The notes beneath the pieces were generated by a model. The model saw nothing but the letters and a program-made list of their open reading frames with translations, searched no databases and was not told the DNA's origin. Positions 15,875 to 42,877 of a stretch of DNA of 52,601 bases are shown here, in pieces. Numbering within the stretch: position 1 is the first letter of the stretch; the number at the start of each line of letters is the position of its first letter. The translations under genes were made by a program, and so were the position numbers. The DNA is taken from the sequence record SRR33789315_138; one strand, 5' to 3'.

Positions 15875-16168
15875 TTGAGGGTTATTGCAAAACGGACATT
15901 GCGAGAATTTTGGGAACAAAACCCAGATAGTGAACAGCAATTATTGTCTTGGTATCAGGAAACATCCAAAAAAGAATGGGAAAGCCCAAACGAAATCAAA
16001 GAACAATACGCATCAGCAAGCATTCTAAAAAATAGTCGCGTTGTTTTCAATATTTGCGGAAACAAATACCGATTGATTGTGGAAATCAACTTCCCAAGAA
16101 AATGGTTTTTTGTTCGATTTATTGGAACTCATAAAGAATATGACAAAATTGACGCAAACAACATCTGA
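15875..16168 (+). CDS. higB: Type II TA toxin, HigB (RelE-like) family
   Basis: MRVIAKRTLREFW, RVVFNICGNKYRLIV, RFIGTHKEYDK; TTG start. Confidence 0.92.
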   Translation: MRVIAKRTLREFWEQNPDSEQQLLSWYQETSKKEWESPNEIKEQYASASILKNSRVVFNICGNKYRLIVEINFPRKWFFVRFIGTHKEYDKIDANNI

Positions 16169-16169
16169 T

Positions 16170-16526
16170 ATGGAAATTAAAGCAATTAAAACAGAAGAAG
16201 ATTACAACCAAGCTTTAGAACGCTTGGGAAAAATTTTTCACGTAAAAGTAGACACTCCTGAAGGCGATGAGGCAGAAATCCTTTCTATTTTGATTGAAAA
16301 ATTTGAGGACAAACATTATCCAATTGGAATGCCTGACCCAATTGAGGCAATCAAATTCCGAATGGAACAGATGAATATGAAACAAAAGGATTTGGCTGAA
16401 GTTATGGGATTCTCAAGTCGAGTAAGTGAAATTTTAAACAAAAAGCGCAAACTGACTTTGGATATGATAAGAAAACTAAATACTACGCTTCATATTCCGA
16501 CTGATGTTTTAGTTCAAGATTATTAA
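16170..16526 (+). CDS. higA: Type II TA antitoxin, HigA family (HTH)
   Basis: IKTEEDYNQAL, PDPIEAIKFRMEQ, SRVSEILNKKRKLTL; ATG at 16170 directly after the toxin stop. Confidence 0.92.
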   Translation: MEIKAIKTEEDYNQALERLGKIFHVKVDTPEGDEAEILSILIEKFEDKHYPIGMPDPIEAIKFRMEQMNMKQKDLAEVMGFSSRVSEILNKKRKLTLDMIRKLNTTLHIPTDVLVQDY

Positions 16527-17885: not shown

Positions 17886-18668
17886 ATGTTTGACTGGATT
17901 GATGTGCTAAACACCTTTAAGCAACAACGAGAAGCCGTTGCACTGGTGACTGTGACCCAAATTTTAGGTTCGGCACCGTGTGTGGTTGGCTCCCGAATGG
18001 TCGTCAAGCGGGATGGAACTCTTTTTGGAACCATAGGTGGCGGAAAATTAGAGTTTCTAGCCATTGATGAAGCTTTAAAAGCTATAACCACAAACAAACT
18101 ACTGGAAATTAGCTATACCTTGGGCCCTGAATTTGAACAATGCTGTGGCGGAAAAGTAGAAATACTAATAGAACCTATGAATCAAGCTCCTCAACTTTTT
18201 GTGTTTGGTGCCGGCCATATTGGGGTCGAAATCGCTACATTGGTACAAAACACCCCTTTTCAGGTTACCCTGATCGATAGTCGGGAAGGCTGGCTGGATA
18301 ATCTGAATTTAGATAAAAGCATAGGCAAGACGACCTTAGATTTAACCGATTTCAAAATAGTTAAAGATGCGGTGCAATGGGGCGAGCATTGTTATATACT
18401 CGTACTGACCCACGATCATACGCTGGATTTTGAACTCATTGCCATGGCGTTAAAAAATCAAACTAAATACCTCGGTCTAATAGGCAGTAAAACTAAAAGA
18501 GCTCGTTTTAATAAGATGCTAATTGATGAAATGGGAATCGAAGAAGGGATGCAAAATGTGGTCTGCCCCATTGGTTTGCCTATAGGTGGTGATACCCCAA
18601 AAGAAATTGCCATTAGCGTGATCGCACAATTGTTACAAGTGAATTATGGAGAAAATGCAAAACATTAA
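17886..18668 (+). CDS. xdhC: Xanthine dehydrogenase accessory protein XdhC
   Basis: GTIGGGKLE, QCCGG, FGAGHIG, THDHTLD, GLIGSKTK, CPIGL. Confidence 0.92.
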   Translation: MFDWIDVLNTFKQQREAVALVTVTQILGSAPCVVGSRMVVKRDGTLFGTIGGGKLEFLAIDEALKAITTNKLLEISYTLGPEFEQCCGGKVEILIEPMNQAPQLFVFGAGHIGVEIATLVQNTPFQVTLIDSREGWLDNLNLDKSIGKTTLDLTDFKIVKDAVQWGEHCYILVLTHDHTLDFELIAMALKNQTKYLGLIGSKTKRARFNKMLIDEMGIEEGMQNVVCPIGLPIGGDTPKEIAISVIAQLLQVNYGENAKH

Positions 18669-18677
18669 GAAAGCCTG

Positions 18678-19553
18678 ATGACTAACGAACAAGCTGCTAT
18701 TCGAACCACTTATTTTAGTCTTATTGGCAATATAAGCCTTGCATTCATTAAGGGTCTGGCTGGTATTTTTGGGAATTCATATGCGCTTATTGCCGATGCT
18801 ATCGAATCAACGACAGATGTTTTTGCCTCACTTTTAGTTCTTTTTGGATTTCATTATGCCAAACGTCCTGCTGACGAAAATCATCCATACGGTCACGGAA
18901 AAATAGAACCGCTAATCACCTTTCTCGTGGTTGCATTTCTAGTGATTTCTGCAGCACTAATTGCCCACGAAAGCATTCATAACATCAGAACTCCGCATAA
19001 AAGTCCAAAAGCGTGGACGCTTATTATTTTAGGCGGAATTATTCTTTGGAAAGAAATTTCCTATCGCATTGTGATCAAAAAAAGTATCGAGACACACAGT
19101 ACTTCGTTAAAGGCTGATGCCTGGCACCACCGAAGCGATGCCATTACTTCTGTGATGGCATTTATTGGGATCTCTATTGCATTAATACTTGGTAAAGGAT
19201 ATGAAGCTGCAGACGATTGGGCAGCTTTACTGGCCGCTGGTTTTATTTTATACAACAGTTATCTGATTTTTAGACCTGCGCTGGGCGAAATTATGGATGA
19301 ACATGTGTATGATGACCTGATTGCTGAAATTCGAATAATTTCAGCAGAGGTAGATGGTATTCTAGGAACCGAAAAATGTTATATCCGCAAAGCAGGAATG
19401 CGTTATCATGTAGATTTACATGCCATTGTAGATGGTCGTATTTCTGTAAAAAATGGACATGACCTCGCCCATAAACTTCAGGATACCTTACACGAAAAAA
19501 TTCCCAATCTTGCGCAAGTGTTAATTCATATTGAGCCGGATGAAATAAATTAA
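18678..19553 (+). CDS. Cation diffusion facilitator (FieF-like) transporter
   Basis: ALIADAIES, PADENHPYGHGKIE, ADAWHHRSD, IHIEP. Confidence 0.92.
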   Translation: MTNEQAAIRTTYFSLIGNISLAFIKGLAGIFGNSYALIADAIESTTDVFASLLVLFGFHYAKRPADENHPYGHGKIEPLITFLVVAFLVISAALIAHESIHNIRTPHKSPKAWTLIILGGIILWKEISYRIVIKKSIETHSTSLKADAWHHRSDAITSVMAFIGISIALILGKGYEAADDWAALLAAGFILYNSYLIFRPALGEIMDEHVYDDLIAEIRIISAEVDGILGTEKCYIRKAGMRYHVDLHAIVDGRISVKNGHDLAHKLQDTLHEKIPNLAQVLIHIEPDEIN

Positions 19554-19671
19554 AGTCATCTTCTTTTTTTGTAATCCCATAAGTTTTATTGTCTAAAAAT
19601 TGACTTGTAATTTTAACACACTAATTACAAACTAATAATCTTTTATTTATATTTACTTCTTTAGTGGTTTA

Positions 19672-20496
19672 ATGCTTGCTTCAAGAAAAACTTTATTTAA
19701 ATCCGAAAGAGTATTCACTACGGGGGAAATTCCTCTATTGGTTACTTGTTCAGATTTCACAGACTGGGTATGTAAACATGGAAGAATGCATTCATCTTCC
19801 TTATTTAATGAAGTAATTGGCTCTAAATTTGCGAAAATATGGAAATTGAAAACGCCTCCTATTTCTTTAATAGAAGTTTCCAAAGATCACCTTCCTAATA
19901 ATTATTTAAATAAAGTTCAACCTGCTTTTTTCAATAAACCTTGTTTTGGATCTTTTTATATAGAAAATAGTCAAGTTGTAGATAAAACATTACTACCGTC
20001 AATTAGAAAAGCTAATTTTCGAAGAAAAATTGCGAATAAAAAAGATATATTAAAAATAGCTCTATTTGATATTTGGCTGAGTAATGAAGATAGGCATCAT
20101 GCCAATAGCAATTTACTCTTGGATCAAACAATTATAGATGAATATTACTTTAATGTCTTTGACCATGGTGCAATATTTAATTCAAATTCATTAATTCGTG
20201 GATTATATTTAATTGATAATAATGAGTCCATTATATATTCTGAATTAGTAAGGATACTTTTTAGTAAGGTTAACAATTTAACAGAAATTGTTGATAACAT
20301 TGTTCAAGAATTTTACCTTTACACAACAGTATGTGAACAGGAATTAAGTAATATCTTAATGGATATTCCTGATGAATGGGAATTAAATCTGGAAAATTTA
20401 GAATTACATTTGCGTAAAAATTTATTTGCAGATAAATGGCATAAGGATTGCGAAATTCATTTTAGAACATTAATACAAGCTTATATTATAAAATAA
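19672..20496 (+). CDS. HipA-like (PI3/4-kinase fold) kinase
   Basis: WVCK (ATP Lys), LFNEVIG, FDIWLSNEDRH..N.NLLL catalytic loop, FDHG Mg-binding motif; very AT-rich. Confidence 0.8.
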   Translation: MLASRKTLFKSERVFTTGEIPLLVTCSDFTDWVCKHGRMHSSSLFNEVIGSKFAKIWKLKTPPISLIEVSKDHLPNNYLNKVQPAFFNKPCFGSFYIENSQVVDKTLLPSIRKANFRRKIANKKDILKIALFDIWLSNEDRHHANSNLLLDQTIIDEYYFNVFDHGAIFNSNSLIRGLYLIDNNESIIYSELVRILFSKVNNLTEIVDNIVQEFYLYTTVCEQELSNILMDIPDEWELNLENLELHLRKNLFADKWHKDCEIHFRTLIQAYIIK

Positions 20497-21353
20497 TGAA
20501 AACCTTTTTTAGCATAATTTATATTCCTTTAAGTTCTAATTTACAAGAGAAAATTAGTATTGGATTGGTTATGTCTGATGGAGAGCAAAATATTTTTAAA
20601 ATTTCTAAACCTAAATTTCAAATTGTTAAGAATTTATTTTCAACACATAAATATAATTTGTTAAAAAATTATTTTAATAATATAATTGAAGAAATCACCC
20701 CTAATATCAATGCATTTAGATTAGATTTAAACCCTTATTCTTCAAATAATTGGTTGAATGAATCCTATATAAGCTACCTGAATAGGTATTCCAACAACTT
20801 AGTAGTTTATTCAGAGCCTAGAAAAATAGATATTGCTATTTCAACTGAAAATTTTAACCGTCTCTTTAAAAAATTTGTTTTTGAGTATGATGAAGAGGTT
20901 AATTCTGTAGCTAAGGAAAATATCTTATCAAAAGTTAATAAACAATTATATTCTAAAATTGAAAGTCACGTAAATCTCCAAGTAACCGTGAATTCAAGTA
21001 ATTTTAATGAATTACTTACACCTGTTGATGTCAATTTTATTGGAAAAAATGGAGTAATTGTTGCTGGACAAGCCATTGATTTTGATAAAAGACTCTATAA
21101 CTTAGAACATGATTTGACCAGTTATATCTCTTTCACTAAAGCCGTTGATTATTCCGGAAATAATGGAAAATATTTTTTAGTAGGTCAAGAACCTGATAAA
21201 AAAGAGAATCCTAATAATCACAGGACGTGGAAACAAGTTAAAGAAAGTCATTTGGTAGACTATATTGATCTTAATGAAACAGATAAGATAAAAGAGTATA
21301 TAATTTCAAATGGAGTAGCTCCTTACTTCGAAAAAGAGATGATATCAGATTAA
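20496..21353 (+). CDS. DUF3037-like protein with extra C-terminal domain, kinase partner
   Basis: N-terminus FSIIYIP....QEKISIGLV resembles DUF3037; C-terminal VDVNFIGKNG..AGQAIDF; coupled to the kinase by TAATG. Confidence 0.55.
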   Translation: MKTFFSIIYIPLSSNLQEKISIGLVMSDGEQNIFKISKPKFQIVKNLFSTHKYNLLKNYFNNIIEEITPNINAFRLDLNPYSSNNWLNESYISYLNRYSNNLVVYSEPRKIDIAISTENFNRLFKKFVFEYDEEVNSVAKENILSKVNKQLYSKIESHVNLQVTVNSSNFNELLTPVDVNFIGKNGVIVAGQAIDFDKRLYNLEHDLTSYISFTKAVDYSGNNGKYFLVGQEPDKKENPNNHRTWKQVKESHLVDYIDLNETDKIKEYIISNGVAPYFEKEMISD

Positions 21354-21384
21354 CTTCAAAGTGTTGTTATTTTAGAAACAGAAT

Positions 21385-22251
21385 TTAACTCCCACGATAG
21401 GTTGTATATCCGTACGGATTAATCAATAACGGAATGTGGTAATGGCTATCGTCTGTAACAGTGAAGTTAATGGCCACTTCGGGATAAAATCCGTTGGTTT
21501 CACTTTTGCGGAAATAAGTATCCGTATCAAAAACCATCAAGTAAGAACCGGTCTTTAAAATACGTCCCGGCGGAAGCACATCTGCAATCCGGCCATCTGC
21601 ATTGGTAATTCCAGTGCTGAGGGGTTTCCACGTATTATCGCGCATCCCTTTTAAGGTAATATGCATTTTAGCTGCAGGAACTCCTATAGAAGTATCCAAT
21701 GCATGTGTTGTAAGTTGGCTGCCCAACTTTATTTCGCTTAAACCTTCGACCAATTTCGCTAAGCGAATTACAGTAATTTTATGTTGTTCATTCATTGCCA
21801 CAAAGATTTCGTCTTCCGGCTCATGTTGCATTCTCTTTTGAACAATCGCCAACATTTCTTCGGCTGATTTTCCGCTGGCGCTTACGATAAAAATATAACC
21901 AAATCGTGCTTCATAAGCCGTATTGGCATCCGCCAAAGCTTGAATAGTTTCGGTATTGGCTTCAGTAACTTGGGCTTGTTCGTTATTTGCCCAATCCTGT
22001 GTATGCGCAAATTTTTTCGTCAGGCTAGCTACATCCCCAATCTTGGGATGCCCGGTAAATGCTTCTTTATAATCAGAAATATCGCAGGTTTCATACCAGA
22101 TTTCTGCGCTTTTGGTTACCAAATCCTCCAAAGAGGAAAAAGGACGTTTTTCCAACATATTATGAATCAATGTTTTGGAAACACAACACGTTTCCAGCAT
22201 GGAAAAAGCTTCGTTTTCGGGAATGGTATTGAGTTGCTCTAATGTTATCAT
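21385..22251 (-). CDS. Bifunctional OHCU decarboxylase (UraD) / 5-hydroxyisourate hydrolase (UraH) fusion
   Basis: N-terminal GHPKIG, EQ, YEARFGYIFIVSASG; C-terminal LTTHALDT, DGR, HYHIPLL..YTTYRGS. Confidence 0.92.
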   Translation of the reverse strand: MITLEQLNTIPENEAFSMLETCCVSKTLIHNMLEKRPFSSLEDLVTKSAEIWYETCDISDYKEAFTGHPKIGDVASLTKKFAHTQDWANNEQAQVTEANTETIQALADANTAYEARFGYIFIVSASGKSAEEMLAIVQKRMQHEPEDEIFVAMNEQHKITVIRLAKLVEGLSEIKLGSQLTTHALDTSIGVPAAKMHITLKGMRDNTWKPLSTGITNADGRIADVLPPGRILKTGSYLMVFDTDTYFRKSETNGFYPEVAINFTVTDDSHYHIPLLINPYGYTTYRGS

Positions 22252-39813: not shown

Positions 39814-40968
39814 TTGAAAGTAGAACATAACATATCTCGATTAAAACACTTACTGAAAATGTACAAGCTTTCAGTATCTGAATTTTTATTGAAAATCAGT
39901 GAAGGTTTAAAGATACCTATAACTGAAAAAGATGTTTTTTCAGAAAGAATAGAAATTGGACACTTAAAAAGAATCGATAAACTTTTTGAAAAGGGAATTC
40001 ATTATTATTTAGACCCAAAAGCACCTGAAAACTCAAAAGAGGCAAGTGTATTTTTCAGAAAGGAAAGTTTTGGAACTGACTTAAATTTCAGAGCAAAAAA
40101 AATAGTTAGCCAATTTGAAGAACTAAAAATATCTATTACTGCAATTTCAAAATTAGCAGAATTAGATACAAAAAGAAAAATTCAAAAATTTAGCATAAAA
40201 GACAATCCAGAAAAAGTAGCAAAAGAGTTTAGACAAATTCTTTATCCAAATTTCACATCTAAACGTAGAGATTTTCTTAAAGCACTAATTTCAAAGTTTG
40301 CAGAAAGTAACATTTTAGTTTTTGAGTTTGTAGAAACTCAAAACAGAAAAGAGAAAGCCAATATTGATGGTTTTTTTCTTAAACCAAATGTTATTGTATT
40401 AAAAAGACACCAATCTTTTAGAAGAGAAATATTCACTTTAGCTCACGAATTAGGTCATTTTTTACTCGACAAAGAAGAAATTGAGTTACTTGATTATAAT
40501 GTAATTGCTGACAAACACTTGTCATCTATTGAAAGATGGTGTAATGATTTTGCTTATTACTTTTTAGTCGGAGAATATGGGGAAATGCTTAAAAACATTG
40601 AACCAGCTAATGCTTTAAATGATTATCATTTTGATTTAATAAAAACAGTTTCTGAAAACACTCATTTGAGTCAAATTGCTTTATTTACAAGATTATTATT
40701 TAAAAATCAAATTAGTCAATCTAACTATAATAAAGTTAGAAATGACTTTGAAGAACAATTCAAAAAATTTCAAGAAGAAAAAGATAGAGAAAAGGAATTA
40801 CAAAAAGAAAAAGGTATAAAAATAAGAGGTTCAGTTGCACAACCAATTTCTTCGCCTTTATTTATATCTACAATTCAATCTGCATTTTATGAAGGTATTA
40901 TAAATGAATACGACGTTTGTAAAAAACTGAATATAAAGCCTGAAAAATTAGACAAGTTTATTCAATGA
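39814..40968 (+). CDS. ImmA/IrrE-family Zn metallopeptidase with N-terminal HTH-like region
   Basis: FTLAHELGH, ERWCNDFA; TTG start, -7 element TACCTTTG at 39784-39791; AT-rich. Confidence 0.85.
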   Translation: MKVEHNISRLKHLLKMYKLSVSEFLLKISEGLKIPITEKDVFSERIEIGHLKRIDKLFEKGIHYYLDPKAPENSKEASVFFRKESFGTDLNFRAKKIVSQFEELKISITAISKLAELDTKRKIQKFSIKDNPEKVAKEFRQILYPNFTSKRRDFLKALISKFAESNILVFEFVETQNRKEKANIDGFFLKPNVIVLKRHQSFRREIFTLAHELGHFLLDKEEIELLDYNVIADKHLSSIERWCNDFAYYFLVGEYGEMLKNIEPANALNDYHFDLIKTVSENTHLSQIALFTRLLFKNQISQSNYNKVRNDFEEQFKKFQEEKDREKELQKEKGIKIRGSVAQPISSPLFISTIQSAFYEGIINEYDVCKKLNIKPEKLDKFIQ

Positions 40969-41537
40969 TAGTAGTAATCGATACAAGTTCTTTGTTGTCC
41001 TTGGTTCGCTATTACTTACCATTTGACCAAAATAATAAGCTTTTTAATTTCATCAAGAAAGAAATACAAAATCACAACATAATAGTGATTGATGAAGTAC
41101 TAAACGAATGCAAATTGGTTTCAGGTAAATTAGTAGTGAAAAAATTAGACTTTTTAATTGATAAAGACTTTTTAAAAGCACATAAAATTCCAGTCAAAAC
41201 GGAAAATTTAATTCCACCTTCACCTAAAAAATTCTACAATCTTCTTGATAATAATTTTACTACAACAAATGCTAAAAAATTAAATAGTGCACAATTTGAA
41301 CAGCGAAAAAAGGAATTTTTAGATTCAGCTGACGCAAGAATGATTATTTATTTATTAACTCAAATAAGTAAAAATTCATTTGAAAAAATCATACTTGTTA
41401 CCGAGGAAACAGAGGGAAGTAATGACTTAAAAGCTTTCAAAAAATTACCTGCGATTAGTAAGATTTTGAACATTGAGGTAAAAACCTTACCTGAACTATT
41501 AGAATTGTATACTGACATAAGCTTATCGTTTGAATAA
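40965..41537 (+). CDS. PIN-domain protein, DUF4411-like
   Basis: VIDTSSL, DEVLNE, SAD, LVTEE acidic motifs; ATGA overlap with the peptidase. Confidence 0.75.
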   Translation: MIVVIDTSSLLSLVRYYLPFDQNNKLFNFIKKEIQNHNIIVIDEVLNECKLVSGKLVVKKLDFLIDKDFLKAHKIPVKTENLIPPSPKKFYNLLDNNFTTTNAKKLNSAQFEQRKKEFLDSADARMIIYLLTQISKNSFEKIILVTEETEGSNDLKAFKKLPAISKILNIEVKTLPELLELYTDISLSFE

Positions 41538-41695: not shown

Positions 41696-41724
41696 ATTTA
41701 TAACCTTTTCTTATATTGAAACCC

Positions 41725-42504
41725 ATGAGTGCGATAAACATTAGAACGGTAAATGTTGTTCAATACCTGAAACCTTTACGAGAAGGAGGCTCTCTTCCCG
41801 CTCTGGTAAAAGCGGATGATGATTTTCTATATGTTTTAAAGTTTAGAGGGGCTGGCCAAGGAAAAATGGCATTGATCGCAGATTTAATAGGTGCCGAACT
41901 TGCGCGTGCAATAGGATTAAAAGTTCCTGAAATTGTTTTTATGAACCTCGATGATTCGTTTAGCAAAACAGAACCCGATGAAGAAATTCAGGATTTATTA
42001 AAGTTTAGTGTGGGTCTTAATTTGGGAATCCATTTTTTGTCAGCTGCCATTACTTATGACCCCTTAATTCCTATTGCAGATTCTCTTTATGCGTCTAAAG
42101 TGGTGCTTTTAGATAGTATGCTCTCAAATATTGACCGAACTGCAAAAAATACCAACTTGCTCAATTGGAAAAATGAATTATGGTTAATAGATCATGGTTC
42201 CAGTTTATATTTTCATCACAATTGGTCGAATTGGGAAACACATCTTTCCCGCACGTTTAGCCTTATCAAAGACCATGTCCTTCTTGAAAGAGCAACTCAC
42301 TTAGAGGAAGCAGCGACTGAGATTCAGCATTTAATAAACCACGAAAAAATCAAGGAAATAGTCTCTATCATTCCAGAAGATTGGCTTATTGAAGAAACAA
42401 ATAGCATGGCTCCAACTGACAAAAGAGCTGCGTATATAAGGTTCTTAGAATCTAGATTTGACAATATTAAAGTATTAGCAAAAGAGGCTTCAGATGCAAG
42501 ATAA
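41725..42504 (+). CDS. HipA-like kinase
   Basis: LREGGSLP, YVLKFRGAGQG, NIDRT.KNTNLL, LIDHG; ATG at 41725 preferred. Confidence 0.85.
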   Translation: MSAINIRTVNVVQYLKPLREGGSLPALVKADDDFLYVLKFRGAGQGKMALIADLIGAELARAIGLKVPEIVFMNLDDSFSKTEPDEEIQDLLKFSVGLNLGIHFLSAAITYDPLIPIADSLYASKVVLLDSMLSNIDRTAKNTNLLNWKNELWLIDHGSSLYFHHNWSNWETHLSRTFSLIKDHVLLERATHLEEAATEIQHLINHEKIKEIVSIIPEDWLIEETNSMAPTDKRAAYIRFLESRFDNIKVLAKEASDAR

Positions 42505-42877
42505 AGTGACCTATGAATTTGCCGTGATTAGAATTGTTCCCAAGGTTGAACGGGAAGAATTTATAAATGTTGGGGTCATCCTTTTTTCTAAATCTAAAAA
42601 ATACCTCGGGATAAAATATAAAATTGATAAAAACCGAATTGGAATCTTTTCTGAAGAAATTGATGTTGATTTTTTAAATAAATACCTCTGCGCTTGGGAA
42701 TGGGTTTGCGCTGGAGATCCACAAGGAGGACGTATCGGAAAACTAGAATTGGCAGACCGGTTTAGGTGGTTAACGGCTTGCCGAAGCACCATTATTCAAA
42801 GTTCTAAAACGCATCCGGGTTTATCTAACAATCCTCAAGAAACGTTGGAAAATTTATTTAAGCTATATGTTTTATAG
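42494..42877 (+). CDS. DUF3037 domain protein
   Basis: YEFAVIRIVPKVEREEFINVGVIL, RFRWLTA.RSTIIQ.S..HPG; overlaps the kinase stop. Confidence 0.85.
   Translation: MQDKVTYEFAVIRIVPKVEREEFINVGVILFSKSKKYLGIKYKIDKNRIGIFSEEIDVDFLNKYLCAWEWVCAGDPQGGRIGKLELADRFRWLTACRSTIIQSSKTHPGLSNNPQETLENLFKLYVL

Follow-up and report, generated by a model that had tools for sequence, protein, structure and literature searches.

We found that two translationally coupled genes in a 52,601-nucleotide stretch of DNA (sequence record SRR33789315_138; hereafter the window) encode, as judged from sequence comparison, a divergent Bacteroidota relative of the published anti-phage system HipAD, also known as DS-6, and not a new system. 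The upstream gene (19672-20496, + strand, 274 aa) encodes a HipA_2-family Ser/Thr kinase, a homologue of HipA/DS-6A and predicted toxin, and the downstream gene (20496-21353, + strand, 285 aa) encodes its partner. The pair very probably belongs to the HipAD/DS-6 kind. Our preferred reading, in which the pair is a horizontally acquired, self-promoted anti-phage toxin-antitoxin (TA) cassette of the HipAD/DS-6/PDC-M66 kind that acts by the whole mechanism proposed below, has a probability of roughly 0.7. An earlier note on this DNA had suggested an uncharacterised defence or TA module; the two-gene HipA-family module stands, probably as an anti-phage or non-canonical TA system by homology, but its kind is not uncharacterised.

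Gene organization and composition of the locus

The two ORFs overlap by one base and are coupled through TAATG (at ...AAATAATGAAA...), as the earlier note had read them. They lie between a CDF transporter gene on the upstream side (18678-19553; PF01545) and a convergent, fused uraD-uraH gene on the downstream side (21385-22251, minus strand; PF09349 and PF00576), and these domain matches confirmed the placement previously given. The GC contents of the kinase and partner genes were 27.3% and 26.3%, respectively, whereas those of the two flanking genes were 39.3% and 41.1%. The AT-richness noticed earlier was thus borne out (approximately 27% GC versus approximately 40%), with the pair lying 13-14 points under its flanks; the 36 other genes of the window had a GC content of 37.9 ± 4.0%.

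Equally low GC was found in one further pair of the window (39814-41537). These two coupled genes (39814-40968 and 40965-41537, + strand, 26-27% GC) are located immediately 5' of a second HipA_2 pair and encode an IrrE/ImmA-type M78 peptidase (PADLOC capP, E = 1e-10, with a weaker match to RmrA) together with a DUF4411 protein. They likely form a TA or defence module.

No HTH gene adjoins the kinase-partner pair. The gene directly 5' of the kinase is the CDF transporter and not HipB, and the nearest HTH gene, approximately 3.1 kb upstream, encodes HigA and belongs to a separate HigBA pair, in agreement with the earlier statement that no HipB-like gene is present beside the pair. This HigBA pair (HigB toxin, PF09907, and HTH antitoxin; window positions 15875-16526, + strand) is likewise inserted in the purine-degradation cluster.

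The upstream gene encodes a HipA_2-family kinase

The kinase matched PF20613 (HipA_2) with an E-value of 1.3e-15 and 57.7 bits at a cut-off of 27, the PADLOC model PDC-M66A with an E-value of 2.2e-10, and phrog_3162 with an E-value of 2.2e-28. The motifs that had been described as intact (K35, E47, N138-D140-R141, N147 and D164-H165) were all invariant in 92/92 aligned kinase homologues, which are a subset of the 120 homologues among the matches listed, and N145 was present in 90 of the 92. This conservation suggests that the upstream gene encodes an active HipA-type Ser/Thr kinase. Close homologues that carry a name came mainly from Flavobacteriaceae, and a tblastn search of GenBank phages with the kinase gave no match. 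In a quick tree, for which the short- and long-partner groups were subsampled and long branches were flagged, the window kinase was placed apart from the proteobacterial HipAD kinases, the short-partner kinases and the M66B-matching Bacteroidota pairs.

Canonical HipA acts in persistence, and its target is glutamyl-tRNA synthetase. The window pair has the HipA-type kinase core in common with canonical HipBA, as indicated by a weak match to the solved HipA structure 4pu5 in a sequence-based PDB search (E = 0.0045). In contrast to HipBA, it has no HTH antitoxin, its kinase gene comes first, and the kinase comprises 274 aa compared with approximately 450 aa.

Comparison with HipAD/DS-6

According to the DefensePredictor report (PMC13092281), DS-6 of E. 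coli consists of a HipA-like kinase (HipA_2, 249 aa) and a 275-aa DUF3037-DUF1829 partner, in which the DUF1829 call has an HHpred probability of 0.78; the system now bears the name HipAD, following Brenes and Laub 2025 as cited in that report. The same report describes that the catalytic mutant D139A of DS-6A lost defence and that AlphaFold3 predicted both kinase-partner and partner-DNA contacts. The architecture for which the earlier note knew of no characterised system is therefore that of DS-6/HipAD, and the partner, which had been called extended, is not so when compared with its counterpart in the known system.

As comparison proteins, we used the annotated HipA and HipD of Escherichia phage PhiR5_1 (PV340545), which were reached via an Aeromonas intermediate. 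By eye, PhiR5_1 HipD is the same as DS-6B in Table S8 (PMC13092281), and PhiR5_1 HipA has Asp at position 139. The two kinase families aligned in hhalign at 98.7% with an E-value of 4e-16, with D140 aligned to D139, when the proteobacterial kinase profile consisted of nine kinases, two of them truncated. The partner family aligned with HipD/DS-6B end to end at 97.3% with an E-value of 1.7e-11 over 254 columns (aa 3-273 versus 5-272), using profiles of 150 rows for the window clade and 95 rows for HipD; column-shuffled and reversed controls, which were run on earlier, shallower profiles, gave at most 0.6%. The bulk of the partner-HipD signal was carried by the N-halves. The C-halves alone gave a weak hhalign score of 22.5 (10.5%, E = 0.003), compared with a maximum of 16.1 among 40 shuffles, and HipD itself had no direct match to DUF1829. 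The pairwise identities to PhiR5_1, which were only 28% between the kinase and HipA and 22% between the partner and HipD, count against our preferred reading.

As evident from these comparisons, the window pair and HipAD/DS-6 are alike in gene order, in coupling, in a HipA_2 kinase whose catalytic Asp is conserved between them, in the lack of HipB, in a partner of approximately 280 aa whose N-half is DUF3037 and whose C-half probably has a nuclease fold, and in the predicted direct binding of the two proteins. They differ in that the window kinase falls in a separate clade, with the low identities given above, and in that the window partner is missed by PF11236 and PDC-M66B. Additionally, HipAD is found in a lambdoid prophage, at the position following cI, whereas the window pair is located in a Bacteroidota chromosome, and the C-half of the window clade has Asp180 in approximately half of the family and mostly Gln at the position of an invariant HipD Lys. 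As a distant relative of the already tested HipAD, the pair is a further member and not a new system. The earlier note had stated that correspondence with a known system would refute its proposal, and such correspondence was found.

The partner begins with a divergent DUF3037 domain

The partner sequence itself had no significant match in Pfam, PADLOC, NCBIfam or PHROGs. In particular, the partner had no match to the PDC-M66B model at E ≤ 1, and four of its relatives matched weakly (E-values of 0.002-0.008). The partner profile matched 687 representatives (50% identity) at E ≤ 0.001, some of which are possibly outside the window's clade. Profile-level evidence supported the earlier reading that the partner begins like DUF3037, to which the direct scan was blind. 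Its N-half (20496..20891, + strand, approximately aa 1-132) aligned in hhalign with the HipD N-half at 97.2% (E = 4e-11) and with the short DUF3037 proteins at 90.9%; PF11236 (DUF3037) was matched at E ≤ 1e-3 by 13 of 130 distant relatives, five of which passed the cut-off, where the 130 are the full-length representatives out of 150 partner relatives among the matches listed; and all of the 30 clusters listed in an ESM Atlas search with the partner were DUF3037. We refer to this half as a divergent DUF3037 and predicted kinase-binding antitoxin module.

The AlphaFold2 model of the partner had a pLDDT of 81 and showed two domains, the C-terminal one spanning aa 139-275. A Foldseek search of the model against the PDB gave no match at E ≤ 0.001, and the best match of the partner profile to PDB sequences was an unrelated protein (E = 0.037). 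Elsewhere, long partners appear to be split or broken (L070:2953-3801 and L144-L145), as one ORF covers the N-half and a second, distinct ORF lies downstream of it.

A predicted nuclease-like fold with a degenerate site in the C-terminal half

The C-half (20913..21353, + strand, approximately aa 140-285) likely corresponds to the DUF1829-like half of HipD and adopts a PD-(D/E)XK-like fold in the model. With this model, VIA-align found the restriction enzyme BstEII (9ibq) as the top match, with a Z-score of 8.3 and an rmsd of 3.4 over 123 aligned residues, followed by Can2, VC1899, BsoBI and a repair endonuclease with Z-scores of 7.6-8.0; most of the top 12 rows were PD-(D/E)XK proteins. A Z-score of approximately 8 is moderate and on the borderline of the values that common fold arrangements yield. 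At this moderate level, the restriction-endonuclease-like C-terminal domain proposed earlier was supported. The model of a HipD relative (98.5% identical) showed the same succession of strands and helices as the window partner, both being AlphaFold2 models. Its top PDB match was also BstEII (Z-score of 8.9, rmsd of 3.5, 135 aligned residues), and the two best viral-protein matches were identical for the two models. When DUF3037 clusters were excluded, an ESM Atlas search with the C-half returned unnamed clusters of 123-130 aa at 0.86-0.88, which serve as leads only. We found no nuclease-fold assignment of HipD in the available portions of the DUF1829/DUF3037 literature, and Brenes and Laub 2025 may state it.

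The residues at the catalytic positions are N180/A190/Q192 in the window partner and P172/A184/K186 in HipD, in an active-site register set by strand order and the HipD alignment and not by residue-level superposition. Among the 150 partner relatives listed, none had a complete D...(D/E/Q)xK triad; position 180 was Asp in 78 and position 190 was acidic in none. G183, N185, E232, P233 and W245 were conserved in at least 90% of the same 150, and an acid was found at position 195 in 128 of them. These strongly conserved residues could make a non-canonical site. Since the triad is missing in all of the relatives listed, the partner is probably an antitoxin that carries a dead nuclease-fold domain and not an effector.

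Predicted binding of the kinase by the DUF3037 half

The complex modelling that the earlier note had proposed predicted an association of the kinase with its partner, with a score of 0.61 compared with 0.01 for the best of three controls. For calibration, 51 of 78 solved complexes attained this mark, as did 2 of 108 mismatched pairs. The contact agreement between runs was at least 70%, and the pLDDT of the partner was at least 78. Every partner interface residue listed lay within aa 14-103, which belong only to the DUF3037 half, and the contacts on the kinase involved residues 96-116 and 11-17, on either side of the hinge and the glycine loop as judged from the motif positions. A sequence search of the PDB found no comparable complex. 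Because the predicted contacts fall in the DUF3037 half and the short partner form described below is the commoner one, DUF3037 most likely clamps the kinase, with the C-half serving as an accessory regulator.

Upstream region and edges of the cassette

TAnnTTTG is the Bacteroidota -7 consensus. A putative box of this type (TATATTTA) is located at 19648..19655 on the + strand, and it appears to travel with the cassette: among 34 non-redundant loci, 28 had TAnnTTT[GA] at 12-45 nt 5' of the start of the kinase gene, compared with a mean of 5.8 and a maximum of 12 in 1000 shuffles and 0/34 in a farther window. The cassette therefore has a putative promoter of its own. A sigma-70 scan of the upstream region was uninformative for the host group.

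An 8-bp inverted repeat (TTGTAATT-N10-AATTACAA, approximately 19605-19630) was considered as an operator and was rejected because it is not conserved upstream of other copies. No conserved operator was found in the upstream regions of the homologous loci, which counts against our preferred reading, and no convincing target-site duplication or terminal repeat was present at the cassette edges.

Distribution and genomic context

The kinase gene lay immediately 5' of the partner gene in 63 of the 69 loci with room for it (duplicates included) and was absent in the other 6. Partner genes lacking a kinase occur in different settings. In a 69-kb phage contig (36% complete), a partner homologue at L136:6001-6749, whose gene is cut at the contig end, comes right after eight tRNA genes, and a kinase is neither upstream nor matched in the available contig; this copy is possibly a phage-borne antitoxin decoy. 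The prophage-like locus L132:1590-2432 resembles L133-L135 by eye and has kept the partner but, unlike these, not the kinase. A third orphan partner, L120:6001-6840, is part of a defence island in which type I RM genes, a gene resembling dCTP deaminase and PDC-M30 also occur.

The earlier note had named core genes in conserved synteny in all relatives as an outcome that would refute its proposal, whereas we found the pair to be patchy. The clade was present in 7 of 401 Flavobacteriaceae genomes, of which one was marginal and one was the search centre, and in 8 of 401 Bacteroidota genomes. The flanks differed between homologous loci with none in common, and some copies were located in prophages. 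Among 16 relatives with the uraD-uraH fusion, the pair was beside the fusion in none. We found no empty-site allele among these 16, in which a different gene follows uraD-uraH: one shared gene in 14, an aminotransferase in one and xdhC in one. The order of the purine cluster at window positions 17886-22251 was itself unlike that of the 16 relatives, with xdhC-CDF facing uraD-uraH here. The position in the purine cluster is incidental, and the pair is a patchy cassette unrelated to purine breakdown.

Most copies, the window copy included, sit among ordinary or housekeeping genes, and some adjoin RM, AbiE, Shedu and Iet genes. A specific PADLOC match within two genes was found at 6 of 33 long-type loci versus 0 of 10 short-type loci. 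For this count, generic ATPase matches (L006, L007, L114 and L055) and weak matches (L044 and L111) were left out, proteins were cut at 600 aa, two near-duplicate short loci were left out, and two of the 121 long-type ORFs were dropped, one being the partner and the other an antisense frame. The check for defence islands that had been suggested earlier thus revealed defence genes near some long loci, but the difference is suggestive only and too small for a claim of enrichment.

Comparison with other HipA_2-DUF3037 pairs

As described in PMC12548924, a HipA + DUF3037 pair of Sphingobacterium daejeonense, which carries the PADLOC name PDC-M66, is located beside Retron-Sda1 and defends against phage Bas51. 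Deletion of the kinase abolished defence and deletion of the DUF3037 gene was toxic, from which it follows that the kinase is the toxin there (PMC12548924). The window pair resembles the Sda1 pair in its Bacteroidota host, in the two-gene kinase + DUF3037 layout and in the M66A match of its kinase, whereas it has no retron or HTH gene beside it. The long Bacteroidota partners L044 and L047 match M66B over their full length (E = 8e-31 and 2e-39), in contrast to the window partner, and their pairs form another clade than the window pair in the quick tree. By eye, the start of the Sda1 kinase, of which a partial sequence was available, resembles the L044/L047 clade. PADLOC would miss the window locus, as M66A is matched and M66B is not.

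A HipA_2 match was found in 70 of 401 Flavobacteriaceae genomes, and most of the retrieved loci pair it with a 127-aa DUF3037 protein alone. These short pairs have the kinase family and the N-terminal partner domain in common with the window pair; they differ in having no C-terminal nuclease-fold domain and a near-host GC content, and they are far commoner in Flavobacteriaceae. The available DUF3037 literature contained no phage or toxicity test of the short form. The window itself carries such a pair, with a second HipA_2 kinase at 41716-42504 (+ strand; PF20613, E = 1e-19; M66A, E = 5e-27) and a short 127-aa DUF3037 partner at 42494-42877 (+ strand; E = 2e-44; M66B, E = 2e-10). This second pair has a near-host GC content, and the two HipA_2 kinases of the window share 23% identity. 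The long and short forms also occur together in several related genomes.

Proposed mechanism and alternative explanations

We propose that the upstream HipA-type Ser/Thr kinase, with its conserved motifs, would act as the toxin. The co-translated partner would bind it via the DUF3037 half, as the complex prediction suggests, and would keep it inactive, for which the genetics come only from a homologue. The C-terminal nuclease-fold domain would not cut DNA and may be an appendage with a regulatory role, either in DNA binding or in the sensing of infection. Upon phage infection, the kinase would be freed and would phosphorylate an essential host target, resulting in abortive infection, by analogy with DS-6 and Sda1.

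A possible but doubtful alternative is a joint claim on the nature of the antitoxin. In this claim, the antitoxin is modular, with DUF3037 as a universal clamp and the dead restriction-enzyme-like domain as an integrated decoy; this decoy binds phage DNA or anti-restriction DNA-mimic proteins, which leads to kinase release; and orphan partner genes, such as the kinase-less copy in L136, are a phage counter. If this were true, long-form HipAD would be a guard of restriction systems.

It is unlikely that the pair is a selfish or stress-response TA module that serves addiction or persistence and plays no part against phage in its host. The TA-like layout, low GC, varied insertion sites and the 27 of 33 loci that have no specific defence neighbour are consistent with such a module, as is the general knowledge of canonical HipA. 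However, both tested homologous pairs protect against phage (PMC13092281, PMC12548924), PADLOC files the kinase under a defence candidate, and copies occur in prophages and beside the RM, AbiE, Shedu and Iet genes.

We consider it very improbable that the partner is a nuclease effector switched on or off by kinase phosphorylation, as the earlier note had modelled it. The PD-(D/E)XK-like fold, the residues conserved in the C-half, the frequent acid at position 195 and the Asp at position 180 in part of the family would fit an effector, but the complete triad is missing throughout the relatives listed, and the site is degenerate both here and in HipD. In addition, the DUF3037 protein of Sda1 neutralises a kinase toxin (PMC12548924), most Flavobacteriaceae HipA_2 genes are paired with a 127-aa DUF3037 protein without the nuclease-fold domain, and orphan partner genes occur. 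Regulation of purine catabolism or zinc transport by the pair is scarcely credible, as the only point in favour is that the pair lies between xdhC-CDF and uraD-uraH, whereas its absence beside uraD-uraH in the 16 relatives, the lack of a common flank and the GC difference from its neighbours speak against it.

Implications for the HipAD family

As a probable anti-phage TA cassette of the HipAD/DS-6/PDC-M66 kind, the pair represents a kind of system that is already published, and its modest, practical value lies first in a Bacteroidota clade that direct scans have overlooked. Neither Pfam DUF3037 nor PADLOC M66B detects this clade when its partners are scanned directly, and HipAD is under-counted as a result. 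The clade also offers a testable anatomy of HipD, in which the DUF3037 half would bind the kinase and the nuclease-fold half would be catalytically degenerate. With a long and a short pair on one contig, the window is a natural setting in which to test how specific the antitoxins are and what the extra domain contributes.
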